Source: Candidatus Omnitrophota bacterium (lineage in GTDB: Bacteria > Omnitrophota > Gorgyraeia > Tantalellales > Tantalellaceae). From it: DNA of 64,000 bases. Of this stretch, positions 1,621-23,411 are shown one piece after another. Under the pieces are notes generated by a model. The model worked only from the letters and a program-made list of their open reading frames with translations, made no database searches and was not told where the DNA came from. Made by a program: the position numbers and the translations under genes. Location of the stretch: positions 7,137 to 71,136 of the forward strand of contig JBDRNE010000025.1 in the NCBI GenBank assembly GCA_043811395.1, given 5' to 3'. How positions within the stretch are numbered: the stretch's first letter is position 1; the number at the start of each line of letters is the position of its first letter.

Positions 1621-3429
1621 ATGGAAAACGAATATATTTTAGCGATTCATTGTGGGCATAACGCCTCTTGCGCGCTTATGCGGGATGGTAAGATAATAGT
1701 CGCGGTGCAGGAAGAGCGGTTTACACGTAAAAAAAATCATACCGGTTATCCCAAGTGTTCAATTGATTATTGTATGAGTAAGGTTGGCATTAGGGGGCAG
1801 GATCTTTCACGAATTGCTTATACGTCGACCAATTTAAGCGGCATTCTTGTTAAATCAAAATATTCGCTTAATTTTTCTGTGAGGGATTATCTCGATTATT
1901 ACGGAAAAAGATACTATCTCCCAAAAATGAATATGGAAAATGAAACGTGTTTCGAGTACTTAAAATGGCTACGTGATTCAGAAAAGTTCAATAAAGAGCC
2001 CCATTATTTTGATTACTCTTTTCTAACAGATGAAGTATTGAGGGACTATAATAAAAGTTTTAGTCTTTTTCGCGATGAACAAACTAAAACTTTATCTAAA
2101 CATTTAGGTGTAGAGCGTAATAAAATACGCTTCATTGACCACCATACTTGTCACGCGCATTATGCCTATTATGGGAGTCCTTTTCTCGGAGAGGATAGTA
2201 TCGTTATTACGCTGGACGGATGGGGGGACGGACGGAATCAGACTGTTTGGAAAGCATCAAATGATGGGCTCGAATTGCTGGCTGAGTCTTGTCAAAATGA
2301 TGTTGGACGGGTGTATAAGATGGCAACTTTGATTTTAGGCATGCGTCCGGACGAACATGAGTATAAGGTTATGGGGCTTGCGCCTTACGCGAAAAAATCT
2401 TACTGCCAAGGTCCGTTTGACGTTATCAAAGATATCTCACAGGTTGAGGATATGAAAATTGTATACAAAAATCGTCCGGAAGACTTATTTTCTTATTTGA
2501 AAAAACATTGGGAAGAATATCGTTTTGATAATATTGCCGCTGCCGTCCAATTGTATGTGGAAACCTTGGCAAAAGAGCTTATCGAAGATGTTGTCAAAAA
2601 AACCGGTATTAAAAAAATTGTACTTAGCGGCGGGATCTCGATGAATGTGAAAATGAATATGGCCATCGCGGAATTACCGTGTGTTTCTTCGTTGTTCGTT
2701 TGCGGTTCAGGCGGAGATGAATCTCTCAGTCTTGGCGGATGCTATTATCTGAATCGAAAGAATAAGAACAATCGACCGGTAGAAAGTTTGTGCATAGGGT
2801 ATGATGTTAAGGATGACTTGAGATCTATTGGCGAAGAGTTTGTTTCCGACCGCTATAATGTAAATAAAAACGTTTCAAATGCCGAAGTAGCTAGATTATT
2901 GGCTCGAGGACATATTATAGCCAGGGTTTGCGACTGTGCGGAGTTTGGGGCAAGAGCATTGGGTAATCGCAGTATTTTGGCTGATCCAAGTAAAAATGAT
3001 GTAGTACAAAAAATAAACAGAATGATTAAAAGAAGAGATTTTTGGATGCCTTTTGCTTTGTCAATACTCGAAGAATACACGGATGAGTATATTCTTAATC
3101 CAAAGAAAATAAAAGCTCCGTTCATGGCGCTTGCATTTAGCACTTTTCCGGATTTATACCGGAATATTCATGCGGGGACGCATCCCTACGACAAGACAGT
3201 TAGACCACAATTTGTTTCAAAGAAAACAAGTACTGGCTATTATAATTTGATAGAAGAATTTCGACAATTAACGGGTATTCCAGCCTTGTTGAATACTAGT
3301 TTTAATTTGCATGGTGAGCCTATCGTGAATGATGTGAAAGATTCTTTGCGCGCGTTTGAACTTTCTGGTCTGGATCATTTGCTGATAGAAGATACATTAG
3401 TCTCAAAACGTGACAAAAAGAGCGCATAA
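1621..3429 (+). CDS. carbamoyltransferase (NodU/CmcH/NovN family)
   Basis: 602 aa. N-terminal Kae1/YgjD-like carbamoyltransferase domain (ILAIHCGHNASCALMRDGKIIVAVQEERFTRKK; HHTCHAHYAY; GWGDG) plus C-terminal carbamoyltransferase domain. Size and motifs fit NodU-type O-carbamoyltransferases. AAAGG RBS precedes ATG 1621. Confidence 0.75.
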   Translation: MENEYILAIHCGHNASCALMRDGKIIVAVQEERFTRKKNHTGYPKCSIDYCMSKVGIRGQDLSRIAYTSTNLSGILVKSKYSLNFSVRDYLDYYGKRYYLPKMNMENETCFEYLKWLRDSEKFNKEPHYFDYSFLTDEVLRDYNKSFSLFRDEQTKTLSKHLGVERNKIRFIDHHTCHAHYAYYGSPFLGEDSIVITLDGWGDGRNQTVWKASNDGLELLAESCQNDVGRVYKMATLILGMRPDEHEYKVMGLAPYAKKSYCQGPFDVIKDISQVEDMKIVYKNRPEDLFSYLKKHWEEYRFDNIAAAVQLYVETLAKELIEDVVKKTGIKKIVLSGGISMNVKMNMAIAELPCVSSLFVCGSGGDESLSLGGCYYLNRKNKNNRPVESLCIGYDVKDDLRSIGEEFVSDRYNVNKNVSNAEVARLLARGHIIARVCDCAEFGARALGNRSILADPSKNDVVQKINRMIKRRDFWMPFALSILEEYTDEYILNPKKIKAPFMALAFSTFPDLYRNIHAGTHPYDKTVRPQFVSKKTSTGYYNLIEEFRQLTGIPALLNTSFNLHGEPIVNDVKDSLRAFELSGLDHLLIEDTLVSKRDKKSA

Positions 3430-3876: not shown

Positions 3877-3906
3877 TTGACAGTATGTATATGTGTATTA
3901 TACAAT
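3877..3906 (+). promoter_or_regulatory. candidate sigma70-type promoter (TTGACA - 18 nt - TACAAT) in the 611-bp gap upstream of the epimerase gene
   Basis: TTGACA at 3877-3882 and TACAAT at 3901-3906, separated by 18 nt. It lies in the only long non-coding gap (3430-4040) of the left half of the locus. Confidence 0.35.
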
Positions 3907-4040: not shown

Positions 4041-5054
4041 TTGAGGACGGAAAATACGGAGAGGAAAGTAATTGTTACCGGTGGAGCTGGGTTTATCGGA
4101 TCACATCTTGTTGATTATCTCGTAGAAAAAGGATGTGAGGTTACTGTAATTGATAATTTTTCAACCGGTAGAAGGTCTAATCTTAAACATATCATTAGTA
4201 ATATCAGATTGGTCGAAGCAGATGTTACGAATTTTGAAGCTATTTTGCCCCATTTCCAAAATAAAGACATAGTTTTTCATTTAGCCGCTTTAGCGGATAT
4301 AGTTCCCTCTATTGTAAATCCTCTTAATTATTACCGGTCTAATGTTAATGGTACTATCAATGTAATGGAAGCTGTACGTTTGTCCAAAGTCAAAAAAGTG
4401 GTCTATTCAGCGTCTTCTTCGTGTTATGGTATTCCCTCCGAAGAACCTCGCCCGACATCTGAAACAGATCCAATAAATCCGCAGTATCCTTACGCGCATA
4501 CTAAATTTTTGGGAGAAGAAATAGTTCTGCATTATGGTAAAATTTATGAAATGCCAGTTGTTTCTTTGCGGTTATTTAATGTTTATGGTCCAAGGTCAAG
4601 AACATCAGGTACTTATGGAGCGGTTTTTGGGGTGTTTTTGGCTCAGAAACTTAAAAATAGTCCGTATACTGTCGTTGGCGACGGTACGCAGACACGTGAT
4701 TTTATTTATGTAAGAGACGTAGCGCATGCTTTCGCGAAAGCCGGGTTTTCGGATGTTAAAAATGAAGTATTTAATGTGGGATCCGGCAATCCTCAGAGTG
4801 TGAATAAACTGGTTTCACTTTTGGGAGGAGATAAGATTCACATACCTAAAAGACCGGGAGAGCCGGAATATACCTGGGCGGACATAAGTAAAATAGCGGA
4901 ACGTCTTTCTTGGCAGGCGGAAGTGTCTTTTGAAGAAGGTGTTGAGAGAATCGTGAAAAAAATTGATTATTGGCAGTCAGCTCCGGTTTGGACACCAGAT
5001 ACGATCGAAAATGAAACAAAAGAGTGGTTTCGGTATTTGACGAAAGGTGTATAG
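4041..5054 (+). CDS. NAD-dependent epimerase/dehydratase (extended SDR; UDP-sugar 4-epimerase / UDP-glucuronate decarboxylase-like)
   Basis: TTG start at 4041 with AGGATAG RBS. N-terminal Rossmann motif VTGGAGFIGSH; Yxx(x)K-type catalytic region (YAHTKFLGE); length 337 aa. Confidence 0.75.
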   Translation: MRTENTERKVIVTGGAGFIGSHLVDYLVEKGCEVTVIDNFSTGRRSNLKHIISNIRLVEADVTNFEAILPHFQNKDIVFHLAALADIVPSIVNPLNYYRSNVNGTINVMEAVRLSKVKKVVYSASSSCYGIPSEEPRPTSETDPINPQYPYAHTKFLGEEIVLHYGKIYEMPVVSLRLFNVYGPRSRTSGTYGAVFGVFLAQKLKNSPYTVVGDGTQTRDFIYVRDVAHAFAKAGFSDVKNEVFNVGSGNPQSVNKLVSLLGGDKIHIPKRPGEPEYTWADISKIAERLSWQAEVSFEEGVERIVKKIDYWQSAPVWTPDTIENETKEWFRYLTKGV

Positions 5055-6586
5055 TGAATCAGAAAGCATTAGAAAAAATAAAAACAATAGATGAATTATC
5101 CCTGATTTCGGAGACTCTAAAAAACGAAGGTCGAAAAATTGTTCAGTGTCACGGGGTGTTTGATCTTGTCCATTTAGGGCATATCAGGCATTTTAATTTG
5201 GCAAAAAAAGAAGCAGATGTTCTGATCATAACACTTACCGCTGACAAGCATGTCAAGAGAGGTCCCGGGCGGCCTGTTTTTAATGAACATTTAAGAGCGG
5301 AAACATTGGCGTCACTTGCTGTTAGCGATTATGTGTGTGTTATGGATTTTCCAACAGCTATCGAGGCTATTAAGCGGATTAAACCTGATATCTATGCGAA
5401 AGGGCTTGATTATAAAGAAAAGAGTAAAGATGTTACCGGCAAGATTTATGATGAAGAAGAGGCTGTTCGTGCTGTCGGTGGAGAAGTAGTGTTTACGGAC
5501 GACATTACTTTCAGTTCTTCAAATTTGATAAATAGTTATCTTGATGTGTATCCGCCCAAAACCATTAAATATTTAAAAGCTATAGCAAAAAGGCATAGCA
5601 CGGATTTAATAGTAGAAAGTCTCAATTTATTAAAAGATTTAAAAGTACTGGTTATCGGGGATGCTATTGTTGATCAGTATCACTATTGCACGCCCATGGG
5701 GAAGTCTTCTAAGGAACACCTGGTTGCGAACAGATACGTTTCAAAAGAAATGTTTGCCGGAGGAAGTTTGGCTACGGCAAACAATGTAGCAAGTATTTGT
5801 GATAAAGTGGATCTTTTGACAGTATTAGGAGAAAAGAGTTCTTTTCAGGAGTTTATTGAAAATCGTTTAGTTGAGAACGTCAATCCCGTATTTTTTTATC
5901 GGTCGGATACCGGGACTATCGTTAAAAGAAGGTTTGTCAGCCAAGGGGTTAATCGGAAACTTTTTGAAATTTGTTATATGAAAGATGATGATATTTCATT
6001 GCCGGCAGAAACGAAAATACTAGAACATCTTAAAAAAAATATTGAAAATTATGATTTGGTTGTTGTCTCTGATTTTGGGCATGGGCTTATGACAAAAAGG
6101 ATTATTGATTTTATTTGTGAAAACGCGAAATACCTGGCGCTTAATGTTCAGACAAATAGCGCCAATATCGGGTTTAACCTTGTAACAAAATACCCAAAAG
6201 CGGATTGTGTATGTGTTGATGAAATGGAGCTCAGGTTTGCCACGCATGATAGATTCAGCGATTTGCGTACACACGCGAAGGATATTTACGGGCGTCTTGG
6301 GTGCAGGCATATTATTGCCACTCGTGGCGCTCATGGTTCATTGTGTTATTCAAAAGAAGACGGGTATCATGAAACGCCCGCGTTTTCATACCGGGTTATT
6401 GACGCGATAGGCGCGGGAGACGCGTTTTTCGCGTTTGTAGCGCCGTGCTTTGCTAAAGGGTTTCCTCAGGACTTAGTGTCATTTATCGGCAATAGTGTCG
6501 GGTCATTGGCGGTTCAAATAGTATGTAACAGGGAACCCGTGAAATCAGTGGATTTAATAAAATTTATTACGCGGCTTTTAAAATGA
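5054..6586 (+). CDS. bifunctional sugar-phosphate nucleotidyltransferase / PfkB-family sugar kinase, HldE(RfaE)-like but with reversed domain order (cytidylyltransferase-like N-terminus, ribokinase-like C-terminus)
   Basis: N-terminus carries the nucleotidyltransferase HxGH motif (CHGVFDLVHLGHIRHF) as in RfaE domain II. The C-terminal half is a PfkB/ribokinase fold with the DAIGAGDAF anion-hole/ATP motif. Probable start is GTG 5054, overlapping the upstream TAG (TAGTG); the track ORF begins at the in-frame GTG 5024. Confidence 0.65.
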   Translation: MNQKALEKIKTIDELSLISETLKNEGRKIVQCHGVFDLVHLGHIRHFNLAKKEADVLIITLTADKHVKRGPGRPVFNEHLRAETLASLAVSDYVCVMDFPTAIEAIKRIKPDIYAKGLDYKEKSKDVTGKIYDEEEAVRAVGGEVVFTDDITFSSSNLINSYLDVYPPKTIKYLKAIAKRHSTDLIVESLNLLKDLKVLVIGDAIVDQYHYCTPMGKSSKEHLVANRYVSKEMFAGGSLATANNVASICDKVDLLTVLGEKSSFQEFIENRLVENVNPVFFYRSDTGTIVKRRFVSQGVNRKLFEICYMKDDDISLPAETKILEHLKKNIENYDLVVVSDFGHGLMTKRIIDFICENAKYLALNVQTNSANIGFNLVTKYPKADCVCVDEMELRFATHDRFSDLRTHAKDIYGRLGCRHIIATRGAHGSLCYSKEDGYHETPAFSYRVIDAIGAGDAFFAFVAPCFAKGFPQDLVSFIGNSVGSLAVQIVCNREPVKSVDLIKFITRLLK

Positions 6587-7161
6587 AACAAGACATTAAA
6601 CAATATTTTGGAGTTTTAAAATCTCTTTTTGATGAAGTTATCGTTACAGCCGAGGGCGGCGTGGTATGCCAGTTTAATGAAGCTATCAAAATGGCGGTAG
6701 AACTTATTTTGGATCAGGCTGGGCTTGGCGGGAAAGTTTTATTTGTGGGTAATGGCGCGAGCGCCGCGATTTCAAGTCATATGGCAACGGATTTTTGGAA
6801 AAATGCCGGGGTAAAAGCTCTTTCGTTTAATGACAGTTCATTGCTGACGTGTATAAGTAATGATTTTGGATATAAGCATGTCTTTGAAAAACCTGTTGAA
6901 ATGTTTGCCGAAAGTGAAGACGTTTTAGTCGCGATTTCAAGTTCAGGAGAGTCTGAAAACATTTTGAACGCGGTAAGCGCGGCAAAAAAAATAGGGCTTA
7001 AAATTGTGACTTTGTCAGGATTTAAAGATAATAATCCTTTAAGAAAAATGGGAGACATAAATTTTTATATGCCTTCAGTAAGTTACGGGCATGTTGAGAT
7101 AACGCATCTTTCGGTGTGTCATTGTATGTCTGATATCATAAAGGTTGGTAAAAATGGATAA
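6583..7161 (+). CDS. gmhA: D-sedoheptulose-7-phosphate isomerase (SIS domain, GmhA)
   Basis: 192 aa SIS-domain protein with VLFVGNGASAAISSHMATDF and SSSGESENIL motifs typical of GmhA. ATGA overlap with the upstream gene. Confidence 0.75.
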   Translation: MKQDIKQYFGVLKSLFDEVIVTAEGGVVCQFNEAIKMAVELILDQAGLGGKVLFVGNGASAAISSHMATDFWKNAGVKALSFNDSSLLTCISNDFGYKHVFEKPVEMFAESEDVLVAISSSGESENILNAVSAAKKIGLKIVTLSGFKDNNPLRKMGDINFYMPSVSYGHVEITHLSVCHCMSDIIKVGKNG

Positions 7162-8227
7162 GTACAAGATTGACGATCATAAGCTTATGTATCATGTCTC
7201 AAGGGTAAATGATTGGTTGAATGGTAAAATTGTTTATCCGATATACATGGAAATATGTCCTTCAGGCGCGTGCAATCATAGATGCACTTATTGTGCTTAT
7301 GATTTTGCCGGGTATAAGAATAAGTTTTTAGAGACTGAAGTATTAAAAAAGAAATTATCGGAGTTAGGTGCCAGAGGACTAAAAAGCGTTGTGTATGCAG
7401 GTGAGGGCGAACCTTTTTTACATCCTGATATGGCGGATATAATAAGTCATACTGCAAAGTCGGGTATAGATGTCGGCATTGCAACGAATGCGGTGTTTTT
7501 TAATGAAGAAACAGCAGAAAAAACACTTAAAGATATTACTTGGCTCAAAGTCAGTATTTCCGGGGCGACGGAAGACACCTATAGAAAAATACACAGGTCG
7601 AAGCCTGGAGATATTTCCCGTGTTATTAACAATATGAAAACCGCTTCAGAAATAAAGAGAATAAAAGGTTATTCCTGCACTCTTGGTATGCAACTCTTAC
7701 TTTTGCCGGAAAATTGTAACGAAGCCGTAGATTTAGTTAAATTGGCTCGGGATATTGGAATGGATTACGTGGTCATAAAGCCTTACTCACAGCATCCGCA
7801 GAGCAAGACCACGAAATATAATTCTGTGAAGTATAGCGAATATGAACATTTAGGAGACAAAATTGCTCAATTAAATACAAACAAATTTAGTGCTGTTTTC
7901 AGAATACAAACAATGCGTGAATGGGACAGCGGAAATAGTGTACGCGGGTACAATCGATGTCTTTCAACCCCTTTTTGGTCGTATATTGATATGGAAGGCA
8001 ATGTGTGGGGATGCGCAATATATTTGGGTGATGAAAAGTTTTTGTATGGAAATATTTATGAAGAGTCTTTTCAGGAAATTTGGCAAGGGAAAAAACGTAA
8101 AAAATCTCTCGCATGGATGGAAAATGAGTTAGATATTTCCAAGTGCAGAGTTAATTGCCGGATGAATAAGATAAATAAGTATCTGTGGGATTTAAAAAAC
8201 CTGCCGGAACATGTAAATTTTATATAA
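7154..8227 (+). CDS. radical SAM enzyme with C-terminal Cys-rich (SPASM/twitch-like) extension
   Basis: CxxxCxxC motif CNHRCTYCAY near the N-terminus and glycine-rich SAM motif (VVYAGEGEPF). C-terminal cysteines (GCAIYLG ... KCRVNCRMN). Paralogous to the 12376 gene. Start ATG 7154 follows AAGGTTGG. Confidence 0.7.
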   Translation: MDKYKIDDHKLMYHVSRVNDWLNGKIVYPIYMEICPSGACNHRCTYCAYDFAGYKNKFLETEVLKKKLSELGARGLKSVVYAGEGEPFLHPDMADIISHTAKSGIDVGIATNAVFFNEETAEKTLKDITWLKVSISGATEDTYRKIHRSKPGDISRVINNMKTASEIKRIKGYSCTLGMQLLLLPENCNEAVDLVKLARDIGMDYVVIKPYSQHPQSKTTKYNSVKYSEYEHLGDKIAQLNTNKFSAVFRIQTMREWDSGNSVRGYNRCLSTPFWSYIDMEGNVWGCAIYLGDEKFLYGNIYEESFQEIWQGKKRKKSLAWMENELDISKCRVNCRMNKINKYLWDLKNLPEHVNFI

Positions 8228-8378
8228 CCCGAATTTCGCGTTAATCGGAATTCGCCTTTTGAAATTGTCATTCCCCTGTTTTCACAGGGGCAGGCTATGC
8301 GAAAGCAGGAATCTAGAAGGATATAGATTCTGGATTAAATTCGGGATGGCAACATTTTTGAAGAAGGGACCGGTCTTT

Positions 8379-8410
8379 CCCCCCTTTGAAAAAGGGGGTT
8401 AGGAGATTTT
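8379..8410. terminator. GC-rich hairpin (CCCCCCTTT-gaa-AAAGGGGG) followed by a T-rich tail; member of a repeat shared with 50093-50212; probable intrinsic terminator of the upstream operon segment
   Basis: 8-bp G/C stem at 8380-8387 / 8391-8398 with a 3-nt loop, then TTAGGAGATTTTAATT. Two further hairpins lie at 8273-8290 and 8309-8330 in the same 223-bp gap. Confidence 0.35.
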
Positions 8411-8450
8411 AATTAATGTCTGATTTTTAAATAAACAACGGTAAAAACAA

Positions 8451-9284
8451 ATGCATGACTTAGAAAAAAAAGCTAAAGAACTAAGACGCGTTATAGTAAA
8501 AACAATTTGTAATGGCGGCGGGGGGCATACTCCCGCTTCTCTTTCAATAGTTGAAATATTAACGGTTCTTTATTACAAAATTTTAAATATTGATCCTAAT
8601 AATTTGAAATCTCTAGAAAGAGACCGGTTTATCTTAAGTAAAGGGCATGCGGGTGTGGCTTTATACGCGATTCTTGCCGAAAAAGGTTTTTTCCCGAAAG
8701 AAGAGCTTAATACCTTTGGTCAAAAAGGAACAATTTTAGGCGGGCATCCCGATATGCATAAAATTCCAGGAGTGGAAGCTTCAACAGGCGCTCTTGGTCA
8801 CGGATTTTCGTTTGGCGCGGGGATAGCTTTAGCGGGTAAACTTGATAAAAAAAATTACAGGGTTTTTGCGCTTTTAGGAGATGGAGAATGCCAGGAAGGT
8901 TCTATCTGGGAAACAGCTTTATTCGCGCCGCAACATGGTCTTGATAATCTAATTGCAATAATTGATTATAACAAATATCAGGCGTTGGATAATTTGGAAA
9001 AAATAGTTTCGTTAGGCGCGTTGGCTGATAAATGGAAAGCATTCGGTTGGGAAGTAAAAGAAGTTGATGGTCATGACATAACTGAGTTAACGAAAGTCTT
9101 AAAAAAAGTTCCTTTTTCTTTTGGTAAACCAAGTGTCGTAATCGCGAATACCATTAAAGGTAAAGGCGTGTCTTTTATGGAAAACGTGCCGATTTGGCAT
9201 TACAGACTGCCGAATGAAAAGGAAATGAAAATATTATGTAAAGAACTTGAAATAACAATGGATGAAAGGGTAGCTTCTGAATGA
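8451..9284 (+). CDS. transketolase, N-terminal (thiamine-diphosphate-binding) subunit
   Basis: 277 aa with GHTPASLSIVEIL, SKGHAGVALYA, GALGHGFSFGAGIA and LGDGECQEGSIWE, the canonical split-transketolase A subunit motifs. Confidence 0.85.
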   Translation: MHDLEKKAKELRRVIVKTICNGGGGHTPASLSIVEILTVLYYKILNIDPNNLKSLERDRFILSKGHAGVALYAILAEKGFFPKEELNTFGQKGTILGGHPDMHKIPGVEASTGALGHGFSFGAGIALAGKLDKKNYRVFALLGDGECQEGSIWETALFAPQHGLDNLIAIIDYNKYQALDNLEKIVSLGALADKWKAFGWEVKEVDGHDITELTKVLKKVPFSFGKPSVVIANTIKGKGVSFMENVPIWHYRLPNEKEMKILCKELEITMDERVASE

Positions 9285-10228
9285 GAGATGCTTATTTGCG
9301 TGCTTTATATAGTTTAGCCAAAAACGATGAACGAATTTTCGCGCTTGTCGCGGATAATGGCGCGATTGTTTATGACAAGTATCGGCAAGATTTTCCGGAA
9401 AGGTTCATTAATTTTGGCATAGCGGAAGCCAATATGGTAAGCGTTGCCGCGGGTCTTGCTTCATGCGGGAAAGTACCTTTCGCGTATACCATTTCTAATT
9501 TCATCACAATGCGCGCGTTTGAACAGGTAAGAAACGATGTTTGTATGCAAAAAATGAATGTTAAATTAGTTGGTATCGGTGCGGGGTTTGTTTATAGCAA
9601 TTTAGGACCTACGCATCACGCTGTTGAGGATATCGCCCTTATGTCGGTTTTACCGGGCATGACAATTTTTTCCCCGGCAGATCCAATAGAAGCCTATGAA
9701 GCAACCATAGCCTCAGCAGAGATAAATGGACCAGTATATTTGCGTCTTGCAACCGGTGGCACGCCTGTAATTTACAAAGAAGATTATGAATTTAATCCCG
9801 GCAAGGGTGTGATCTTAAGGGAAGGTAGAGATGTCGCAGTTATTACCACAGGCAATATCACGCATGAAGTTATTCTTGCTATAGATGAACTTAAAAGAGA
9901 AGGCATATCAGTGCGCCTAATAAATATGCATACGATAAAACCTATTGATAAACAGATTATAGTTAAAGCGGCTGAAGATACCGGGGCTATTTTGACTATT
10001 GAGGAACATTCACTTTTTGGCGGGTTAGGTAGTTTGGTATCATTGATTTTAGTTGAAACAGATGTTTCGGTAAGTTTCAAGAGTTTAGGGTTCGACAATA
10101 CTTTTCCAGAAGGGTATGGAACATATCAGGATATGAAAAAAATGAATGGTCTTTCAAAAGATGATTTTATAAGAGAAACAAAACTTCTTTATGAAAGAAA
10201 AATGCAGAAAAACGGAATAGTGTTTTAG
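9281..10228 (+). CDS. transketolase, C-terminal (pyrimidine-binding / C-terminal domain) subunit
   Basis: 315 aa; ATGA overlap with the N-terminal subunit; FGIAEANMVSVAAGLA and GPTHHAVEDIALM motifs. Confidence 0.85.
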   Translation: MRDAYLRALYSLAKNDERIFALVADNGAIVYDKYRQDFPERFINFGIAEANMVSVAAGLASCGKVPFAYTISNFITMRAFEQVRNDVCMQKMNVKLVGIGAGFVYSNLGPTHHAVEDIALMSVLPGMTIFSPADPIEAYEATIASAEINGPVYLRLATGGTPVIYKEDYEFNPGKGVILREGRDVAVITTGNITHEVILAIDELKREGISVRLINMHTIKPIDKQIIVKAAEDTGAILTIEEHSLFGGLGSLVSLILVETDVSVSFKSLGFDNTFPEGYGTYQDMKKMNGLSKDDFIRETKLLYERKMQKNGIVF

Positions 10229-10242
10229 GGTAAAAGGAAATT

Positions 10243-11688
10243 ATGGGGGGAAAGAACGAAATAAAAAAGGTATTATTGGTTTCGCCAAGGTTTAATAAAG
10301 GCAGACATCAAATATCTATTCATCCTTTGGCAGGTCTTGGGTATATTGCCGAATCTTTAAAAAATAACGGTTTTGAAGTTAATGTTTTCGACATGAACTT
10401 GCAGTATTCTGAAAAGGATTTGGCAGAGAAAATACATAGTTTTCTTCCCGATATGGTAGGTTTTTTGATTATGACTTTTGGCTATAAAGATACTTATCGT
10501 CTGATTGAAGGAGTTAAAGAGCTGGAGCCGAATGTTAAAATTGCTGTTGGTGGACCACATATTTCTACTTTAAAAGAAAAGGTTTTACAGGAATGCTCCG
10601 CAATTGATTATGGCGTTTTGCTCGAAGGTGATAAAAGTTTTGTTAGGTTGTGTCTTAATGACGACGTAAAGAATATTCCGGGGATAGTTTATCGCGCGGA
10701 AGGTAAAATAAGAAAAAATGAGTTTAATGAATTTATTGAAAATCTAAATGAATTACCTTTTCCTAGATATGAAGCATTTGAACTTGAAAAGTACCCTGTT
10801 AAACAGATAGGCATTGTTACTTCAAGGGGGTGCCCGTATAAGTGCATATATTGTCCGGTAGTTTCTGCCATAGGTCGAAAATTTAGAGCTAGGAACGCTG
10901 ACAATATTGCAGAAGAAATAGAATATTGGCACAGTAAAGGATACAGAGAAATTCTTATTTTGGACGACAATTTTACTTTAGTTCGTTCACGCGTGGAAGA
11001 ATTATGTTGGTTGCTTATAAACAAAGATTTAAAAGACATTAGACTTAAATGTCCCAATGGTATAAGAGCTGATAAAACAGATTATGAACTTTTAAAGCTT
11101 ATGCGAAAAGCCAGGTTTGATATGATCTCTTTTGGAGTGGAATCTGCCAGTAGTAAGGTTTTAAAAAATATAAATAAAGACGAGAATATTGATGTAATAG
11201 AAGAAGCTATAAAAAACGCGTGTAGTTTAGGGTTTGAAGTTAGCCTGTTTTTTATAATAGGTTCTCCGGGAGAAACCCCGGAAGATGTTCAAAAGTCTTT
11301 TTCTTTGGCATTAAAATATCCAGTTGCTGTCAGTAATTTTTATAATATTATTCCGTTTCCTGATACAGAACTTTTTGACTGGATTAGTAAAAATAAATAT
11401 TTCTTGCGTCCATTGGAAGACATTATGAATAACGCGTCACATTTTATAAATGAGCCCTGTTTTTTTACGCCTGAAATGTCTTACGAAGAAAGAAAGCGCG
11501 CTTTTAAAAATGGTAAGAAAATTTCGAAAATTATACGAAAAAGGTTTATCGAAAAAAAACTAAAGGGTCCTGAAGTTTTAAAGAGATTGTTCAGCTGTAT
11601 TTACACTATTGGGGTTGTGGAACAAGTTTTAACGACAAATAAATCTGTAATAAAACTGAAGGAAAAATTGAAACAAGCAGTTTGTTAA
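10243..11688 (+). CDS. cobalamin (B12)-binding domain radical SAM enzyme (class B)
   Basis: N-terminal B12-binding Rossmann-like region (KKVLLVSP...GLGYIAESLKNNGFEV...IAVGGPHIS) followed by SRGCPYKCIYCPV (CxxxCxxC) and an elongated radical SAM core. Confidence 0.8.
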   Translation: MGGKNEIKKVLLVSPRFNKGRHQISIHPLAGLGYIAESLKNNGFEVNVFDMNLQYSEKDLAEKIHSFLPDMVGFLIMTFGYKDTYRLIEGVKELEPNVKIAVGGPHISTLKEKVLQECSAIDYGVLLEGDKSFVRLCLNDDVKNIPGIVYRAEGKIRKNEFNEFIENLNELPFPRYEAFELEKYPVKQIGIVTSRGCPYKCIYCPVVSAIGRKFRARNADNIAEEIEYWHSKGYREILILDDNFTLVRSRVEELCWLLINKDLKDIRLKCPNGIRADKTDYELLKLMRKARFDMISFGVESASSKVLKNINKDENIDVIEEAIKNACSLGFEVSLFFIIGSPGETPEDVQKSFSLALKYPVAVSNFYNIIPFPDTELFDWISKNKYFLRPLEDIMNNASHFINEPCFFTPEMSYEERKRAFKNGKKISKIIRKRFIEKKLKGPEVLKRLFSCIYTIGVVEQVLTTNKSVIKLKEKLKQAVC

Positions 11689-11701: not shown

Positions 11702-12364
11702 ATGGGAAGCCTTCTAAATGTAATAACGCCGCTTCATAAAAGGGCAAAAAGAGATTATGTCGCGAGGATGATAAAAGATAAAGTCGATTGTTCCCGAATT
11801 GCCCGCCAATATGGAAAAGATTATTGGGATGGTGACAGAAAATACGGGTATGGCGGGTATAAATATGACGGTAGATGGAGTGTTGTTGCACAAGGGTTAA
11901 TTGATTTATATAAACTTCCAGTAAATGCAAAGATTTTAGATGTTGGGTGCGGGAAAGGGTTTCTTTTGTATGAATTAAAAAAACTTCTGCCCCGTGCGGA
12001 AATAAAAGGATTTGACATTTCAAGCTATGCAATTGAAAATTCAAAGGAAGAGGTCCGGGATAGTTTGTTTGTGCATAAAGCAGAGGACGAGTTTCCTTTT
12101 AATGACAAAGAATTTGATCTGGTTATTTCGATCTCAACGCTTCACAATTTGTGCGTGGGCGACTTAAAAAGCGCTCTCAAAGAAATTGAGAGAACCGGCC
12201 GGAATAAGTATGTTACGATGGAAGCTTACAGGAACGAAGAAGAACTTTTTAATCTCGAGTGTTGGGCATTGACTTGTGAATCGTTTTTTAGACCCGAAGA
12301 ATGGCAGTATTTGTTTAATGAGTTTGGGTATTCGGGTGATTTTGAATTTATTTATTTTGAATAA
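11702..12364 (+). CDS. class I SAM-dependent methyltransferase
   Basis: Motif I ILDVGCGKGFLL, acidic motif II (EIKGFDIS), motif III (FDLVISISTLHNL). AAGGAG RBS 6 nt upstream of ATG 11702. Confidence 0.65.
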   Translation: MGSLLNVITPLHKRAKRDYVARMIKDKVDCSRIARQYGKDYWDGDRKYGYGGYKYDGRWSVVAQGLIDLYKLPVNAKILDVGCGKGFLLYELKKLLPRAEIKGFDISSYAIENSKEEVRDSLFVHKAEDEFPFNDKEFDLVISISTLHNLCVGDLKSALKEIERTGRNKYVTMEAYRNEEELFNLECWALTCESFFRPEEWQYLFNEFGYSGDFEFIYFE

Positions 12365-12375: not shown

Positions 12376-13446
12376 ATGGGGAATATTTATACTAAAATGA
12401 AAATATTTCATTTCAAAGAAAAAATAGATTCTCTTCCAAGGGAAAAAGGAAAAGTTTTAGCGCCTATTCACATCAGAATAAAACCGACAAATGTGTGCAA
12501 TCATAACTGTTCGTATTGCGCGTATAGGGCGGACGATTTGCAGTTGGGCAAAGACATGGTTCAGCGTGATTTTATTTCTAAAGAAAAAATGATGGAAATA
12601 ATTGATGATGTAATTGAAATGGGGGTTAAAAGTGTTACTTTCTCCGGCGGGGGAGATCCTTTTTGTTATCCATATCTTTTTGACGCGGCAAAAAGATTAT
12701 CCGAATCAGATGTTAAATTTGCTTCACTTACAAATGGGGCTTTGCTGGACGGGGAAAAAGCTGAAATTTTCGCGAAAAACGCTTCCTGGATTCGAATTTC
12801 TATGGATGGGTGGGATGACGAAAGTTATTCTGAGTATCGGGGGGTACCCAAAGGAGAATTTACGAAAGTTTTGAATAACATAAAAAATTTTAAAACGTAT
12901 AATGGTGCCTGTTTTTTAGGGGTTTGTATTATTGTTGATAAAAAAAATGCGTCACATGTATATGAATTAGCGGAACAAATAAGAGAGAGCGGGGCTAATA
13001 GCGTGAAAATAGCGCCGTGTATTGTTAGTAACAGCGGTAAAGAGAATAATGAGTATCATGAGCCTATATTTGATAAAGTTAAAGTAGAGATTGCTCGAGT
13101 TATAAAAAAACTTGGTGATGTTGATTTTGAGATATTTGATTCATACCACGGACAACTAGAAACTTTTGAAAAAGAATATTCATGGTGCCCGTATCTGCAG
13201 ATTTTGCCTGTTATTGGCGCGGATCTCAATATTTATCCGTGTCAGGATAAGGCTTATAATCTTGACGAAGGGCTGATAGGATCTATAAAAGAAGTCAGGT
13301 TTAAAGATTTTTGGTTTTCTGATAAAAATAAGTTTTTTAAAGTTAATCCTTCGCGGCATTGCGCGCATCATTGCGTGGCAGACGGCAAAAATAAACTCAT
13401 TTTAGATTACTTGAATGTAGACAAAAATCATATGGGGTTTGTATAA
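12376..13446 (+). CDS. radical SAM enzyme with C-terminal Cys-rich (SPASM/twitch-like) extension; paralog of 7154-8227
   Basis: CNHNCSYCAY cluster, SFSGGGDPF SAM-binding motif, C-terminal cysteines (WCPYLQ ... YPCQDK ... HCAHHCV). Confidence 0.7.
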   Translation: MGNIYTKMKIFHFKEKIDSLPREKGKVLAPIHIRIKPTNVCNHNCSYCAYRADDLQLGKDMVQRDFISKEKMMEIIDDVIEMGVKSVTFSGGGDPFCYPYLFDAAKRLSESDVKFASLTNGALLDGEKAEIFAKNASWIRISMDGWDDESYSEYRGVPKGEFTKVLNNIKNFKTYNGACFLGVCIIVDKKNASHVYELAEQIRESGANSVKIAPCIVSNSGKENNEYHEPIFDKVKVEIARVIKKLGDVDFEIFDSYHGQLETFEKEYSWCPYLQILPVIGADLNIYPCQDKAYNLDEGLIGSIKEVRFKDFWFSDKNKFFKVNPSRHCAHHCVADGKNKLILDYLNVDKNHMGFV

Positions 13447-17674: not shown

Positions 17675-19009
17675 ATGAAAAGCGATAAGATGAGGAAAAT
17701 GTTAAAATTTGGAATCAGGCAGTTTTATCATATTCGGGAAGGCGGAATTCCTGTACTATTTCGAAAAGTGGTTATTTTATTCCGGGTGTCTTTTGAAATG
17801 TTATTAGTCTTGTTGGCGGTTCCGATAGTGCTTTTTGCGCGGTTGTTAAAACCAATTATCTGGATACGGTTTGGGTGTCTTATTAGTCCCAGGATTGGAC
17901 ATTTTGCGGCCAATACGGAAATGTATATGTGTTTTCGCGATATGGACGAGCGTAGTAAGCGCCGATTAGATCTGTTTTATTGTACAAAACCGATTTGTAA
18001 TCGCCAGTTAAAAAAAATGTGGGGACGAGTTTTACATATTTTTAAGCTAGTACGCTGGTGTGATAAAGCAAATCAATTATTGCCGGGAGGAAAAGATTAT
18101 AGGGTTGTTTTATTGTCGGATAGAGATACATGTGGTGTCCTTCAGCAGGTTAAGAAACATCTTTTTTTTACAGACAGAGAAGATCGGTTCGGTAAGAAAG
18201 AGATCGAAAAAATGGGGATTTCTACAGATGCTTCTTTTGTTTGTTTTTACGCTCGTGACGCCGCGTATCTTGATTCTATAGCTCCGGGAATTGATTGGAA
18301 GTATCACAACTACAGAGATTCAAACATAAAGGACTATCTTCTTGCGGCAGAAGAACTAACAAGAAGAGGGCATTTTGCCGTTAGAATGGGAGCTGTGGTG
18401 AAAGATGAGTTAAAAGTCAGTAATCCCTCAATAATTGATTACGCATCAAAGGGAAGAACCGATTTTATGGATATATATCTTGCAGCAAACTGCAAATTTT
18501 TTCTTTCATCTACAGGAGGAATTAATGCGGTAACGACAGTGTTTAGGCGTCCGGTAGTTTTTGTGAATAATATGCCGCTTGCATGTTTTCCTGCTTCAAA
18601 TTATGGGGACTTATTTATTCCAAAAAAATTATGGTTGCGAGACGAACGTCGTTTTTTAACTTTTCAAGAGATTTTAGATTCGGAAATAGCTTTTTTCTTT
18701 TTTTTCGAACAGTATGAGAATAGAGGAATTGAACTTGTTGACAATACTCCGGAAGAGATTATGGATGTGACTGTGGAAATGGATCAGCGTTTAAACGGAC
18801 AATGGCAAACTATGGAAGAAGATGAAGAATTGCAGAGATATTTTTGGTCGTTGTACAATTCGGAAGAATACAAACGATATTGTAAGATGTTTCGAAGATT
18901 TGGCAATATGCCGTATCATCGAATACCATGTCGTATTGGTGCTAAGTTTTTGCGAGAAAATAAAGAATTGCTATACGGCAAGAGGATAATGGGAATTGAT
19001 CTCAAATAA
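17675..19009 (+). CDS. hypothetical protein, possibly a GT-B-like glycosyltransferase / capsule-type transferase; N-terminal hydrophobic segment
   Basis: 444 aa; AGGAGA RBS; N-terminal TM-like helix (LLVLLAVPIVLFARLL); no motif I can assign with certainty. The layout (N-terminal domain plus C-terminal STGG-containing region FFLSSTGGINA) is reminiscent of GT-B sugar transferases. Confidence 0.35.
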   Translation: MKSDKMRKMLKFGIRQFYHIREGGIPVLFRKVVILFRVSFEMLLVLLAVPIVLFARLLKPIIWIRFGCLISPRIGHFAANTEMYMCFRDMDERSKRRLDLFYCTKPICNRQLKKMWGRVLHIFKLVRWCDKANQLLPGGKDYRVVLLSDRDTCGVLQQVKKHLFFTDREDRFGKKEIEKMGISTDASFVCFYARDAAYLDSIAPGIDWKYHNYRDSNIKDYLLAAEELTRRGHFAVRMGAVVKDELKVSNPSIIDYASKGRTDFMDIYLAANCKFFLSSTGGINAVTTVFRRPVVFVNNMPLACFPASNYGDLFIPKKLWLRDERRFLTFQEILDSEIAFFFFFEQYENRGIELVDNTPEEIMDVTVEMDQRLNGQWQTMEEDEELQRYFWSLYNSEEYKRYCKMFRRFGNMPYHRIPCRIGAKFLRENKELLYGKRIMGIDLK

Positions 19010-19038
19010 GCTAAAATTGTTTTCAAAGCGTACATATT

Positions 19039-19839
19039 ATGAATAGCAGAACAAAAAACTTGAAATTCAAACAAACATCCGTAAGTAAAGAAATCGCGGG
19101 AAAACTTTTTTTCTTTGAAGGTTATAGCGAAAAGAATGTTGAAGATGGAGTAGATTCGTTTAAACATTTTTTAAAGAAATACAAAAAACTATACAGAATT
19201 CTGAAGGTTATGATCTCACCTGTATGTTTTGATAATTCGTTGGGTCGGTTCATAAATAAAGAGATTGGTAATCAAGAAGGTTGTTTTATAAACTTAGGAT
19301 CAGGGAATGAACGAATTCATGAGAAAGTAGTTAATTTTGATATTTTTGGCTATGATGAAGTGGACATTATTTGTGATATTTGCAGTCTTCCAATTGAAGA
19401 TAATTCGGTTGATGTGGTTTTTAATTTGTCTGTGTTAGAACATGTTCCATTTCCGCAGAAGGTTGTATCTGAAATTTGGCGGGTACTTAAACCTGGCGGA
19501 TTGGTTTTTTCTGATGTGCCGTTTGTTATGGGGTTTCATGCTTCGCCATATGATTATAGCCGATGGACAGCTGTTGGCATAAAAAAACTTTACGCGAAAT
19601 ATGACATTTTAGATTTTAAAGTTAACGGAGGGCCGACTTCCGCATTTTTGTGGATTTTTCAGGAATGGTTTGCTATGCTGTTATCCTTTGGTATAAAGGC
19701 GTTATATCTTTTATTGCACATTTTTATAATGTGTTTGACTTTTCCGATAAAGTTTATCGACATAATTTTGAGATATCATCCAATGGCCGAAAATATTGCG
19801 GCCTCATATATTTTGATTGGAAGAAAAACCTATGAGTAG
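19039..19839 (+). CDS. class I SAM-dependent methyltransferase (Methyltransf_11-like)
   Basis: INLGSGNERI motif I, DIICDICSLPIEDNSVDVVFNLSVLEHV motif II/III region, VLKPGG post-III motif. Confidence 0.6.
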   Translation: MNSRTKNLKFKQTSVSKEIAGKLFFFEGYSEKNVEDGVDSFKHFLKKYKKLYRILKVMISPVCFDNSLGRFINKEIGNQEGCFINLGSGNERIHEKVVNFDIFGYDEVDIICDICSLPIEDNSVDVVFNLSVLEHVPFPQKVVSEIWRVLKPGGLVFSDVPFVMGFHASPYDYSRWTAVGIKKLYAKYDILDFKVNGGPTSAFLWIFQEWFAMLLSFGIKALYLLLHIFIMCLTFPIKFIDIILRYHPMAENIAASYILIGRKTYE

Positions 19840-21772: not shown

Positions 21773-21830
21773 CGCTTATTTTGTGAAACTTAACATAGAA
21801 AAAGGTTAATAGACTAATAAGGTGGTAAAG

Positions 21831-23411
21831 ATGCGAATAATGTTTATTATAAACGAGTTAGGAATAAACGCGCCTTTTGGACCGATGATATTATCGGCGG
21901 TTCTTAAAAAAAAAAGACATGATGTTAGTCTAGGTGTAATACAAAAGGAAGACCTTGAAAAAAAAATAGGTTCATGGAAACCAGATATTCTCGCGTATAG
22001 TATGATGTCAGTTGACATGAAGGACATGAAGAAGTTCAATGATTCTTTGCGAAAAAAAATAAAGATTTTCACTATTTTGGGCGGTGCTCATCCTACCTTA
22101 GATCACAGTTGTATAGATGATCCCGGAATTGACGCAATTTGTGTGGGAGAAGGGGAAGAGGCGATAGTTGAGGTTGTTGAGGCGCTAGAAAATGGAAAAA
22201 GTTTGGAAGGTATTAAAAACATTATTACAGATAAGGCGTCTCCTTTAGAGTTGAGAGATCTTATAGAAGATTTAGATACGGTTCCTTTTATGGACAGGGA
22301 ACTCGTTTACGCGCATCGGGAAATGGCACGTTTTGGGGTTAAAGGGATTTGGACAAGCAGAGGATGTGTTTTTAGGTGTCCGTATTGTTTTAATAGCCGT
22401 ACGAATGAAATTTTCAAAAACAAAGGAAGAATTTTTAGACGGCGCAGTGTTGAGTCAGTAATAAAAGAAACCGAACAATTGGTTTCAAAGTATCGAGTTG
22501 ATTTTATTCGGATGCAGGATGATGTTTTTATTTATAAAGTTGATGATTGGTTAAAAGAATTTGTGGATAAATGGGCAACTCGAATAAAAATTCCATTCTA
22601 TTGTTTACTGCGTTCAGAGACTGTTACGGAAGAAATGGCTTTTTATTTAAAAAAGGCAGGTTGTTTTTCTATCGCGATGTCAATAGAGTCAGCAGATGAT
22701 GATATAAGAATTCGTATGATGCGCCGAAAAGTTGAAAAATCAGATTTAGAGAAAGCGTTCAGTATTTTTAAGGAACATAAGATCAATGTGTACGCTAACA
22801 CAATGCTGGCACTTCCATTTACAAAGCTTGAAGATGATATTGCGTCGGTCGATTTTGCTATAAAAGTTAAGCCTGAAATGCCGAACTTTTCAATTTTTAT
22901 GCCATATCCTGGTACGGATTTAGGAGATTATTGCGCGAGAATCGGAGTGTATGATGTTAACCAGAATCATATAGAATACGGTATGCGTAACGCAAGTTCT
23001 TTAAAATGTTTTACAAAAAAAGAAAAAGATGCCCAATATAACCTTTGCGAACTGGCAATAATCGCTGTTAAATTACCTTTTTTGAGAAATTTAATCGTAA
23101 ATCATCTTATACATTGGAGCCCGAATAATTTTTTCTTTTTTATGCACTACATTTTTTCTATTACAGCTTATGGGAAAAAGATCTTTTATTTCAAGCATAC
23201 ATTTTTTGAATATTTTGAACTATTGGGACGGACCCTAAAACATTATATCTATGATTTTTTGAAAGGTGAAAAGAAAGATATGTGTAAAGAGAAGCAAGAA
23301 AAAATAAACAAATGTGAGACGGTTCTTGCCGAAAAAGAGCGTAAAGAAGAACTTGAAAAATGTATGGAGGCGATGGAAACCGGTGAACCAGTCGGCTGGT
23401 TGGCAAGTTGA
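21831..23411 (+). CDS. cobalamin (B12)-binding domain radical SAM enzyme (class B)
   Basis: N-terminal B12-binding domain (FTILGGAHPTL, CVGEGEEAIVEVVEAL) then SRGCVFRCPYCFNS. AAGGTGG RBS before ATG 21831. Confidence 0.8.
   Translation: MRIMFIINELGINAPFGPMILSAVLKKKRHDVSLGVIQKEDLEKKIGSWKPDILAYSMMSVDMKDMKKFNDSLRKKIKIFTILGGAHPTLDHSCIDDPGIDAICVGEGEEAIVEVVEALENGKSLEGIKNIITDKASPLELRDLIEDLDTVPFMDRELVYAHREMARFGVKGIWTSRGCVFRCPYCFNSRTNEIFKNKGRIFRRRSVESVIKETEQLVSKYRVDFIRMQDDVFIYKVDDWLKEFVDKWATRIKIPFYCLLRSETVTEEMAFYLKKAGCFSIAMSIESADDDIRIRMMRRKVEKSDLEKAFSIFKEHKINVYANTMLALPFTKLEDDIASVDFAIKVKPEMPNFSIFMPYPGTDLGDYCARIGVYDVNQNHIEYGMRNASSLKCFTKKEKDAQYNLCELAIIAVKLPFLRNLIVNHLIHWSPNNFFFFMHYIFSITAYGKKIFYFKHTFFEYFELLGRTLKHYIYDFLKGEKKDMCKEKQEKINKCETVLAEKERKEELEKCMEAMETGEPVGWLAS

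Follow-up and report, generated by a model that had tools for sequence, protein, structure and literature searches.

What does a heptose-activating enzyme with its two domains in reversed order do beside a split transketolase? The question is raised by a 64 kb stretch of DNA from a Candidatus Omnitrophota bacterium (hereafter the window, meaning the whole stretch analysed), in which a nucleotidyltransferase-kinase fusion, a GmhA-like isomerase and a two-subunit transketolase-like enzyme follow one another between positions 5054 and 10228. Nucleoside diphosphate (NDP)-heptoses are building blocks of bacterial surfaces and potent agonists of innate immunity. A first-pass annotation had read the three elements as an NDP-heptose module with its own supply of sedoheptulose-7-phosphate. 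Comparison with related loci leads us to a different reading: 4041-10228, together with tailoring genes up to about 13446, is on balance probably a conserved, mobile cassette for a nucleotide-activated, modified heptose of a surface polysaccharide. Our direct observations concern the order of the domains, the families nearest to the proteins, the changed residues and the statistics of synteny; from these we infer all substrates and the sequence of the steps. Positions are those of the window, and all of its features given here lie on the + strand.

The fusion carries HldE-like domains in reversed order

The fusion gene (5054..6586) starts at a GTG codon that overlaps by 1 nt the TAG stop of an upstream short-chain dehydrogenase/reductase (SDR) gene, and encodes 510 amino acids. 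Profile hidden Markov models (HMMs), Protein Data Bank (PDB) matches, motifs and an AlphaFold2 model agree on its layout: an HldC-like transferase half (about amino acids 1-165, nt 5054-5550), a helical linker (about amino acids 166-191) and an HldA-like PfkB kinase half (about amino acids 192-510, nt 5627-6583). Pfam places CTP_transf_like (PF01467) N-terminally and PfkB (PF00294) C-terminally. The NCBIfam models rfaE_dom_II (TIGR02199) and rfaE_dom_I (TIGR02198) match amino acids 19-160 and 192-489, with 100.8 bits (cut-off 181.5) and 119.8 bits (cut-off 345), respectively. The order reversed with respect to HldE, which the first-pass annotation had described, is therefore confirmed down to the exact coordinates.

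The same annotation had considered that the N-terminal domain might turn out to be a glycerol-3-phosphate-type cytidylyltransferase, or the kinase a member of a non-heptose PfkB clade. Neither outcome was observed. The transferase half scores 100.8 bits with HldC/HldE domain II compared to 25.6 bits with the glycerol-3-phosphate cytidylyltransferase model, and the kinase half scores 119.8 bits with the HldA-type model compared to 40.9 bits with the ribokinase model. HldA is also the best match by fold: for the AlphaFold2 model (pLDDT 89.9), the best PDB match found by Foldseek is HldA of B. cenocepacia (4e84; E 7e-24, TM 0.86, rmsd 2.8 Å), and other PfkB kinases follow from E of about 2e-16, around seven orders of magnitude behind. 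The PDB sequence matches of the fusion include HldC-type proteins and HldA. Identity to E. coli HldE (sequence taken from NC_000913.3) is 34% in the transferase half and 21.6% in the kinase half.

The ranking of models holds across the family. HldE, rfaE_dom_I and rfaE_dom_II are the best models for all 26 diverse members that make up our alignment A1, with best E-values of 2e-56, 1e-41 and 1e-32, respectively, while the best values reached over the same 26 by the glycerol-3-phosphate cytidylyltransferase and ribokinase models are 7e-13 and 7e-17. Transferase precedes kinase in all 116 aligned full-length representatives. Family-wide, these 116 retain HxGH (cHGvFDllHxGH), KGxxRP (KGpgRP), KG..Y and SS(S/T) in the transferase half and GG, TxxKxR and GAGD (GAGDA) in the kinase half.

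With HldE the fusion has in common both folds, the motifs HxGH, KGxxRP and S(T/S)(T/S) of the transferase and GG, TxxKxR and GAGD of the kinase, and a GmhA-like isomerase as partner, joined in some loci by GmhB. It differs from HldE in having the transferase at the N-terminus, in scoring a third to a half of the equivalog cut-offs (152.3 bits against 521 for the HldE model NF008454) and in its context, which is polysaccharide tailoring rather than synthesis of the lipopolysaccharide (LPS) core. By sequence, the fusion appears to work most like HldE. It is not a member of HldE as curated: all of its scores lie far below the equivalog cut-offs, its domain order is the reverse and the hallmark motif of the transferase is altered.

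A large family with a possible origin of its own

A search of 5.8 billion proteins with the fusion gives more than 6,000 matches, the best 120 of which are all about 510 amino acids long, carry the two Pfam domains in matching order and are 69-78% identical. Among 1.84 billion cluster representatives (50% identity), 16,610 match at E <= 1e-3 and 1,248 at E <= 1e-30; the best 150 are mostly full-length at 33-50% identity, the remainder being shorter, partial or matched in two stretches. The fusion belongs to a large, conserved and uncharacterised family and is not a peculiarity of this locus, a point that the first-pass annotation had overlooked. Databases name the best 120 matches only 'PfkB family carbohydrate kinase', 'adenylyltransferase/cytidyltransferase family protein' or 'rfaE bifunctional protein'. 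Since hundreds of full-length homologues exist, the genes in the window are real and conserved rather than chance open reading frames (ORFs). An annotation or assembly artefact joining two genes is ruled out by the presence of the same ORF of about 510 amino acids on hundreds of independent contigs.

Carriers of the fusion are found in Omnitrophota, Planctomycetota (Sedimentisphaerales and Pirellulales), Auribacterota, Actinomycetota and Bdellovibrionales, as well as in one archaeal metagenome-assembled genome (MAG). In cultured organisms it is plasmid-borne in Solidesulfovibrio carbinolicus (pDCAR1, 43.7% identity) and in Azospirillum oryzae (42.6%). The high identity across phyla suggests strong constraint together with horizontal transfer. 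Our literature search found no characterised reversed HldE, nor any heptose/transketolase/radical SAM (S-adenosylmethionine) cluster.

Several relatives bear on how the reversed order arose. Free-standing transferase paralogues, 42-49% identical to the N-terminal half, lie directly 5′ of the fusion in two related loci (L008, 9959-10441; L014, 2478-3008), and further short ORFs resembling this half at 45-48% identity lie 5′ of the fusion in L052, L058, L059 and L094. All six of these cassettes carry two transferase domains. Kinase-only relatives of about 345-400 amino acids also occur among the representatives and could be fragments. The T4-like Synechococcus phage S-SSM7 (locus L111, NC_015287.1 103000-115438) has separate genes for, in order, a transferase (133 amino acids), a kinase (279 amino acids), a methyltransferase-like protein and a phosphoheptose isomerase, which look like a split-gene counterpart of the cassette. 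Because both free-standing transferase paralogues and transferase-then-kinase gene pairs exist, it is plausible that the fusion arose from such a pair, independently of the HldE fusion; the evidence for this is suggestive. Nearby at the phage locus are two Nol-like carbamoyltransferases, 2OG-Fe(II) oxygenases and a nucleotide-sugar epimerase, and no phosphatase is present there.

A two-subunit ThDP enzyme is the most constant neighbour

We compared the window with 18 genome loci, 80 metagenome loci (42-77% identity), two earlier loci and two plasmid loci, in which ORFs were called and compared with the window proteins and with E. coli GmhA, GmhB and HldE. A recurring order emerges: an SDR orthologous to that at 4041-5054, the fusion, an isomerase of the SIS type, a further SDR or a radical SAM/SPASM enzyme, a two-subunit thiamine diphosphate (ThDP) enzyme and one or more methyltransferases. 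In many loci two DegT aminotransferases come after the cassette.

The most constant neighbour of the fusion is the ThDP pair, present in 43 of the 48 loci whose sequence extends at least 6 kb downstream. Its type varies: 27 of the 43 have a transketolase only, 12 have only a pyruvate dehydrogenase (PDH)-E1 alpha/beta enzyme and 4 have both. The slot before the pair is taken either by an SDR or by a radical SAM enzyme of the 7145-8227 type, an alternation which suggests two ways of reaching a carbonyl acceptor.

Three members of the cassette had been overlooked by the first-pass annotation: the SDR at 4041-5054, the radical SAM enzyme at 7145-8227 and the methyltransferase at 11702-12364. The first of these (SDRa, 4041..5054; Pfam Epimerase, 207.7 bits) is an extended SDR of the NDP-sugar C4 epimerase/oxidoreductase type, with SSS..YG and YxxxK motifs and without the Asp-Glu pair of 4,6-dehydratases. 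An orthologue with at least 50% identity lies just 5′ of the fusion in 42 of 69 loci. Its nearest solved relatives are of the GalE, WbpP/WbgU and UXS types, all of which go via a 4-keto intermediate. An assignment of SDRa as an HldD-type heptose 6-epimerase was set aside: its closest solved relatives act at C4, and in NCBIfam the GalE model (192 bits) outscores that of heptose 6-epimerase (134 bits), both being under their cut-offs. No chain named heptose epimerase occurs among the 60 best structural matches listed.

The radical SAM/SPASM enzyme (7145..8227; Pfam Radical_SAM and SPASM) has as nearest solved relatives DesII, viperin-type enzymes and cytosylglucuronate decarboxylase, all working on nucleotide-linked substrates. 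It would accordingly act on a nucleotide sugar, by oxidation or rearrangement, before the ThDP step. The class I SAM methyltransferase (MTa, 11702..12364; Pfam Methyltransf_31/11/25) has orthologues of 59-75% identity directly 3′ of the gene for the C-terminal transketolase subunit (TK_C) in seven loci (L008, L012, L013, L014, L021, L022 and L023), and orthologues after TK_C in several more distant loci as well. L008 lies on a complete Omnitrophota chromosome (CP070797.1).

A diverged GmhA-like isomerase, usually without GmhB

The isomerase gene (6583..7161) overlaps the stop of the fusion gene by 4 nt and encodes a GmhA-like SIS sugar-phosphate isomerase. That the fusion has a GmhA-like partner, as had been proposed, stands: the protein is 34% identical to E. 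coli GmhA and its best PDB matches are phosphoheptose isomerases (91 bits). It adjoins the fusion in 57 of 83 loci. In E. coli GmhA numbering it retains H61, H180, D94 and the Ser-rich phosphate loop.

While the SIS fold is shared with GmhA, three features set the isomerase apart. Two fall in the zinc site, where E65 is replaced by D and Q172 by E, both still possible metal ligands; the third is a deletion of 6 amino acids that takes out the R69 loop. All three, like the retained residues, are invariant in 11 proteins, namely that of the window and ten cassette orthologues, so that they mark the cassette subfamily. In gonococcal numbering the zinc ligands of GmhA are H61, E65, Q175 and H183 (PMC5387315). 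Judged by these residues, the machinery is compatible with a ketose-phosphate isomerase, whose substrate would be assigned by homology.

The absence of GmhB from the window, already remarked in the first-pass annotation, is borne out by tblastn searches of the 64 kb, in which E. coli GmhB and two GmhB-like ORFs of related loci match only at E > 1. Nor was a HAD phosphatase seen in the Pfam scans, which covered most of the larger window ORFs (outside them are 308-1531, 47630-50082 and the ORFs past about 59.4 kb). Among the 37 loci with both flanks of at least 5 kb, a GmhB-like HAD gene is found in 4. Viral and eukaryotic heptose gene sets without a phosphatase, like most of the fusion loci, are reported in the available part of one study (PMC11461863).

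Nevertheless, GmhB-like genes do lie beside the fusion in L015, L019, L074, L085 and L101. In three of these loci (L085, L015 and L019) GmhA and GmhB beside the fusion are both of canonical type. L085 has the contiguous order fusion-GmhA-GmhB; in L015, a locus not counted among the 37, a GmhA-like gene is paired with a GmhB-like one upstream of the fusion. These few loci support a route via heptose-1,7-bisphosphate.

The transketolase-like pair has a remodelled acceptor site

The split transketolase named in the first-pass annotation is present and confirmed by Pfam: an N-terminal (PP domain) subunit at 8451..9284 (Transketolase_N) and a C-terminal subunit at 9281..10228 (Transket_pyr and Transketolase_C). 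Both chains are about 50% identical to the biochemically active split transketolase of Carboxydothermus hydrogenoformans, with 262.8 bits for the N chain and 246.3 bits for the C chain (against the C chain of 6yaj).

The residues for ThDP, metal and catalysis (H26, H66, H100, D155, N185, H261, E411 and H473) are all kept in the window enzyme. Across 38 orthologues of the N chain, H26, H66, H100, D155, N185 and H261 are kept or nearly so, H100 in 33 of the 38, and R91 is replaced by C, G or Y in most. In the C chain, aligned with E. coli TktA and with the human and C. hydrogenoformans enzymes, R358, E411 and H473 are kept, and among its 32 relatives E411 and H473 are likewise conserved or nearly so.

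The acceptor site is another matter. In canonical transketolases, R358, S385, H461 and R520 bind the substrate phosphate and D469 the C2 hydroxyl. Of these five the window enzyme retains R358 only: in E. coli numbering the replacements are S385I, H461G, D469L and R520T, at positions where the three reference transketolases retain all four residues. The change is general among 32 cluster-linked relatives of TK_C. Position 461 is G in 30 of the 32 and position 469 is L in 29. At position 385, Ser is in none of the commonest variants, which account for at least 28 of the 32. Position 520 is K, T, A or E in at least 28 (21 with Lys and 4 with Thr), and only 3 have Arg there. The alignment thus gives intact ThDP and donor-side residues alongside a remodelled acceptor site. 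Engineering that steers E. coli transketolase towards acceptors without a phosphate mutates S385, D469 and R520, and the same pocket contains H461 and R358 (PMC10787763). The remodelling in the cassette falls on exactly these engineered positions.

These residues bear on the role that the first-pass annotation gave to the pair. The cassette could be a plain NDP-heptose module, the split transketolase being a dedicated pentose-phosphate-type enzyme that raises sedoheptulose-7-phosphate locally. Transketolase does make this compound in central metabolism; the N subunit is canonical, the two chains stand close to an active split transketolase, R358, E411 and H473 are kept, and the Lys found at position 520 in 21 of the 32 relatives is a conservative change. 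The loss of S385, H461 and D469 in nearly all of these relatives and the Thr at position 520 in the window argue the other way, as does the consistent flanking of the ThDP pair by a methyltransferase and an oxidoreductase. An E1 alpha/beta-type enzyme, moreover, occupies the slot in 12 of the 48 cassettes. E1 alpha/beta-type enzymes decarboxylate pyruvate and cannot produce sedoheptulose-7-phosphate. The supply role is disfavoured because the loci with such an exchange still retain the isomerase and the fusion: with the slot exchanged, a supplier acting upstream fails, and a C2 transfer acting downstream, onto the activated sugar, fits. We therefore part from the first-pass annotation here and consider local supply of sedoheptulose-7-phosphate quite unlikely.

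The ThDP enzyme might also act first, making an unusual ketose phosphate (for example octulose-8-phosphate from hexose-6-phosphate), which the isomerase, kinase and transferase would then convert to an NDP-octose or a higher sugar. An analogue exists in the GDP-octose route of lincosamides, in which a transaldolase and a GmhA-like isomerase work together with a kinase, a phosphatase and a nucleotidyltransferase. The diverged isomerase (R69 loop, E65D and Q172E) and the diverged kinase could reflect a non-heptose substrate, and the linkage of ThDP pair and fusion is tight (43 of 48 loci). The lost phosphate-binding residues of the acceptor site, however, disfavour an aldose-phosphate acceptor. 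An E1-type enzyme would give 1-deoxy-ketoses, unusable by an aldose-ketose isomerase and an anomeric kinase, and the loci concerned keep both; the canonical-type GmhA and GmhB beside the fusion in L085 and L015 point to ordinary heptose phosphates. We regard a ThDP enzyme acting first as unlikely.

A C2 transfer onto the activated sugar, which we prefer, has parallels. Three ThDP classes are known or proposed to branch keto-sugars: YerE-like lyases, E1 alpha/beta-type enzymes ('alphaKADH2') and split-gene transketolases (PMC12247030). The last were proposed for miharamycin and amipurimycin, with thirteen putative examples, all from Streptomyces and none characterised in vitro (PMC12247030).

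In two loci TK_C is shortened to about 163 amino acids (L003, 14018-14509; L019, 6681-7178), having the Pyr domain without the TKC domain beside a normal N chain. These may be minimal variants or decayed genes.

A proposed route to a branched or extended heptose

Taken together, the genes can be arranged in a pathway. The GmhA-like isomerase, by homology and by its retained metal and phosphate sites, would convert sedoheptulose-7-phosphate to the 7-phosphate of D-glycero-D-manno-heptose. The kinase half, by its likeness to HldA, would phosphorylate the anomeric O-1, and the 7-phosphate would be removed by a phosphatase encoded elsewhere, either GmhB or a promiscuous HAD enzyme. The HldC-like N-terminal half would then form the NDP-heptose. 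This would be turned into a keto (or aldehyde) nucleotide sugar by the C4-type SDR, the DesII-like radical SAM enzyme or both, and onto that sugar the transketolase-like pair would move a two-carbon ketol unit (hydroxyacetyl or dihydroxyethyl). The predicted product is a C-branched or chain-extended sugar, which methyltransferases, and in some relatives also aminotransferases and a carbamoyltransferase, would tailor before its incorporation by the glycosyltransferases of the window.

In its boldest form, which we put forward tentatively as a possibility, the cassette would be an undescribed, widespread pathway to a nucleotide-activated C-branched or C2-extended heptose with a nine-carbon skeleton, for use in surface glycans.

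Several points weigh against a heptose pathway of this kind. Both halves of the fusion lie far under their equivalog cut-offs, and the isomerase reaches 108 bits with TIGR00441 compared to an equivalog cut-off of 209. In the kinase half the HldA motifs SPEAPVP, SDYxKG and DPKG are replaced by GKxxK, DxGHG and NxQxNxxNxG, respectively, changes that could fit a sugar or a phosphate pattern differing from heptose-7-phosphate. The motif (F/L)xxGxSTT, given as a hallmark of heptose nucleotidyltransferases (HENases) in the available part of PMC11573728, reads DDITFSSS in the fusion: its F/L and G positions are altered, and position 5 ('R5') is Phe, not Arg. The isomerase is not adjacent to the fusion in about 30% of loci, and about 89% of related loci, like the window, lack GmhB. 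The acceptor of the ThDP enzyme may be another nucleotide sugar of the cluster, in which a second pathway is encoded at 39854-43191. Finally, the literature searched contains no assay of an enzyme from the fusion family or from this subfamily of transketolases.

Some of these points would suit a different activity. Most PfkB kinases phosphorylate a primary hydroxyl, and most PF01467 transferases (TagD, CCT, ECT) make CDP-linked non-anomeric donors. The fusion might do both, yielding a CDP-heptitol, CDP-ketose or CDP-alditol for phosphodiester decoration. The absence of GmhB would then be expected, and neither the HldC hallmark nor several of the HldA motifs are conserved. The best PDB match of the transferase half is indeed an ethanolamine-phosphate cytidylyltransferase (50 bits, two repeats summed, with HldC-type proteins at 40-45), and the glycerol-3-phosphate cytidylyltransferase model also matches 24 of the 26 family members. 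In all 26, however, the HldE-domain HMMs beat the TagD and ribokinase models widely; KGxxRP, typical of HldC, is retained and HldA is clearly the best fold match. GmhB-like genes near the fusion in some loci, and the finding of no LicD- or TagF-type phosphotransferase among the Pfam-scanned ORFs of the window, also count against such a donor, which we consider improbable. Formation of an NDP-heptose by the fusion remains our preferred assignment.

Relation to known systems and implications

Heptose-activating enzymes are widely distributed across kingdoms, with viral sets that have no phosphatase, and relatives make CDP- or UDP-heptose besides ADP-heptose, according to the available parts of two studies that summarise Tang et al. 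2024 (PMC11573728, PMC11461863). Three architectures are listed in the available part of the former, namely transferase alone, kinase/transferase and isomerase/kinase/transferase, and a transferase-then-kinase order is not mentioned in that part (PMC11573728). The available text also ties an arginine of STTR5 to nucleotide promiscuity, at the position where the fusion has Phe.

The reversed fusion, if the proposed pathway is true, would therefore add a fourth heptose-activating architecture, possibly with a nucleotide other than ADP or with a GmhB-independent route. It is common in uncultivated phyla, occurs on plasmids and has a related form in cyanophages.

The ThDP enzyme of the window resembles the keto-sugar-branching systems in being a two-subunit enzyme beside an oxidoreductase able to create a keto acceptor. 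Transketolase and E1 types replace each other in homologous cassettes, and L001 has a YerE-like gene. Known or proposed settings are aldgamycin, kibdelomycin and paulomycin for the 'alphaKADH2' enzymes and LPS sugars for the YerE-like lyases (PMC12247030). The split transketolases known or proposed to branch keto-sugars come from Streptomyces antibiotic clusters, whereas the type found here belongs to surface-glycan clusters of Omnitrophota, Planctomycetota and other phyla and is linked to a heptose-type activation module. With the C. hydrogenoformans split transketolase (6yak/6yaj; PMC7661550) the window enzyme shares the two-chain organisation and intact ThDP-binding and catalytic histidines; the four substrate-site residues kept in that enzyme are replaced in the window enzyme and in most of the 32 relatives. 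From its residues, the pair would work most like the proposed sugar-branching split transketolases, and its substrate site is not canonical.

If the proposed reaction is true, the H461G/D469L split transketolases would be the first natural ones for nucleotide-sugar acceptors outside Streptomyces antibiotic clusters, and the keto acceptor would be reached anaerobically through the DesII-like radical SAM enzyme. Such pairs are candidate natural catalysts for carbon-carbon bonds on nucleotide sugars, an activity that for split-gene transketolases is proposed and undemonstrated. The hypothesis is directly testable in two cultured carriers, Solidesulfovibrio carbinolicus DSM 3852 and Azospirillum oryzae KACC 14407. 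For annotation, the lesson would be that a transketolase within a sugar cluster is not by default a pentose-phosphate enzyme.

Further genes around the cassette

Some genes are less regular companions of the cassette. A second radical SAM enzyme (rSAMb, 12376..13446; Pfam Radical_SAM) is an occasional member, with orthologues of 62-69% identity in L006, L014, L019 and L105, usually after MTa. Between TK_C and MTa lies a B12-binding radical SAM enzyme (10243..11688; Pfam B12-binding and Radical_SAM), probably a tailoring enzyme of the C-methylation type; its relatives occur at low identity in 14 of 53 loci, a loose association. Upstream, a NodU/CmcH-type carbamoyltransferase (1621..3429; Pfam Carbam_trans_N and Carbam_trans_C) is probably an O-carbamoylating tailoring enzyme, and homologues lie near the fusion in L007, L022, L035 and on the Azospirillum oryzae plasmid.

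The loci also differ in what surrounds the cassette. For example, the Sedimentisphaerales MAG locus L001 (JAFGGI010000042.1) encodes at 18400-21533, 3′ of its E1 alpha/beta pair, an acetaldehyde dehydrogenase, an HMGL-like (DmpG-type) aldolase and a YerE/acetolactate-synthase-type ThDP enzyme, which brings several enzymes that form carbon-carbon bonds or supply 2-oxo-acids into one cluster. On the plasmid pDCAR1 of Solidesulfovibrio carbinolicus (L029, NZ_CP026539.1 72487-97995), the fusion directly follows a NeuB-family synthase. The cluster there is of the pseudaminic-acid type (pseB, pseC, pseF, a second CMP-sugar synthetase and a sialate O-acetylesterase), and a split transketolase and a methyltransferase belong to it as well, as do three radical SAM genes. 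NeuB-like genes are near the fusion in 7 of 53 loci, which hints at a link to nonulosonic-acid or flagellin-type glycans.

The surrounding glycan cluster

According to the Pfam scans, the window is a very large surface-glycan cluster. For assembly it has glycosyltransferases of the families GT2 (about nine) and GT4 (two), together with a Wzy-type polymerase and an ABC exporter. Many methyltransferases accompany six radical SAM enzymes of the B12-binding type, and there are also a DegT aminotransferase, a KAS III with FabG, and three hexapeptide acyltransferases. The source of the fusion match is a Candidatus Omnitrophota MAG, whose 510-amino-acid protein, from a 71 kb contig at NCBI, is 100% identical. 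The G+C content of the window is about 36%.

All gene-like ORFs of at least 150 amino acids are on the + strand, so that the 64 kb form one co-directional block, and the GC skew is above 0 in all 2 kb bins (0.12-0.32). No tRNA was found in the 64 kb, and an Rfam scan of the window found no RNA family and hence no thiamine pyrophosphate (TPP) or cobalamin riboswitch. A 612-bp gap 5′ of the SDR gene contains the best sigma-70-like promoter match of the region (3877..3906, TTGACA-18-TACAAT, 11/12), a weak hint that the operon may start there; the promoter and terminator scan as a whole is at background, with a total of promoter-like matches in the region not above the shuffled expectation. Four large ORFs, at 17675-19009, 19817-21772, 30522-32330 and 57596-58963 (444, 651, 602 and 455 amino acids), and a small one at 58920-59372 (150 amino acids) have no Pfam match at E <= 1e-5, in a cluster whose genes are otherwise well annotated.

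The second nucleotide-sugar pathway (39854-43191) consists of an NTP_transferase, a 4,6-dehydratase-type SDR, a 3,5-epimerase (dTDP_sugar_isom) and a reductase-type SDR, and resembles a 6-deoxyhexose (rhamnose-type) route. By Pfam, the six B12-binding radical SAM enzymes are at 10243-11688, 21822-23411, 36314-37828, 44017-45480, 54063-55457 and 55438-56856, and three further radical SAM enzymes start at 7145, 12376 and 13439. So many of them in one cluster suggest that sugars are extensively tailored by C-methylation or by other radical chemistry. The three hexapeptide-repeat acyltransferases, followed by KAS III (FabH-like) and the FabG-like reductase, occupy 32365-36287 and look like a module that would N- or O-acylate a sugar, the acyl chain being short and possibly of the 3-hydroxy kind.

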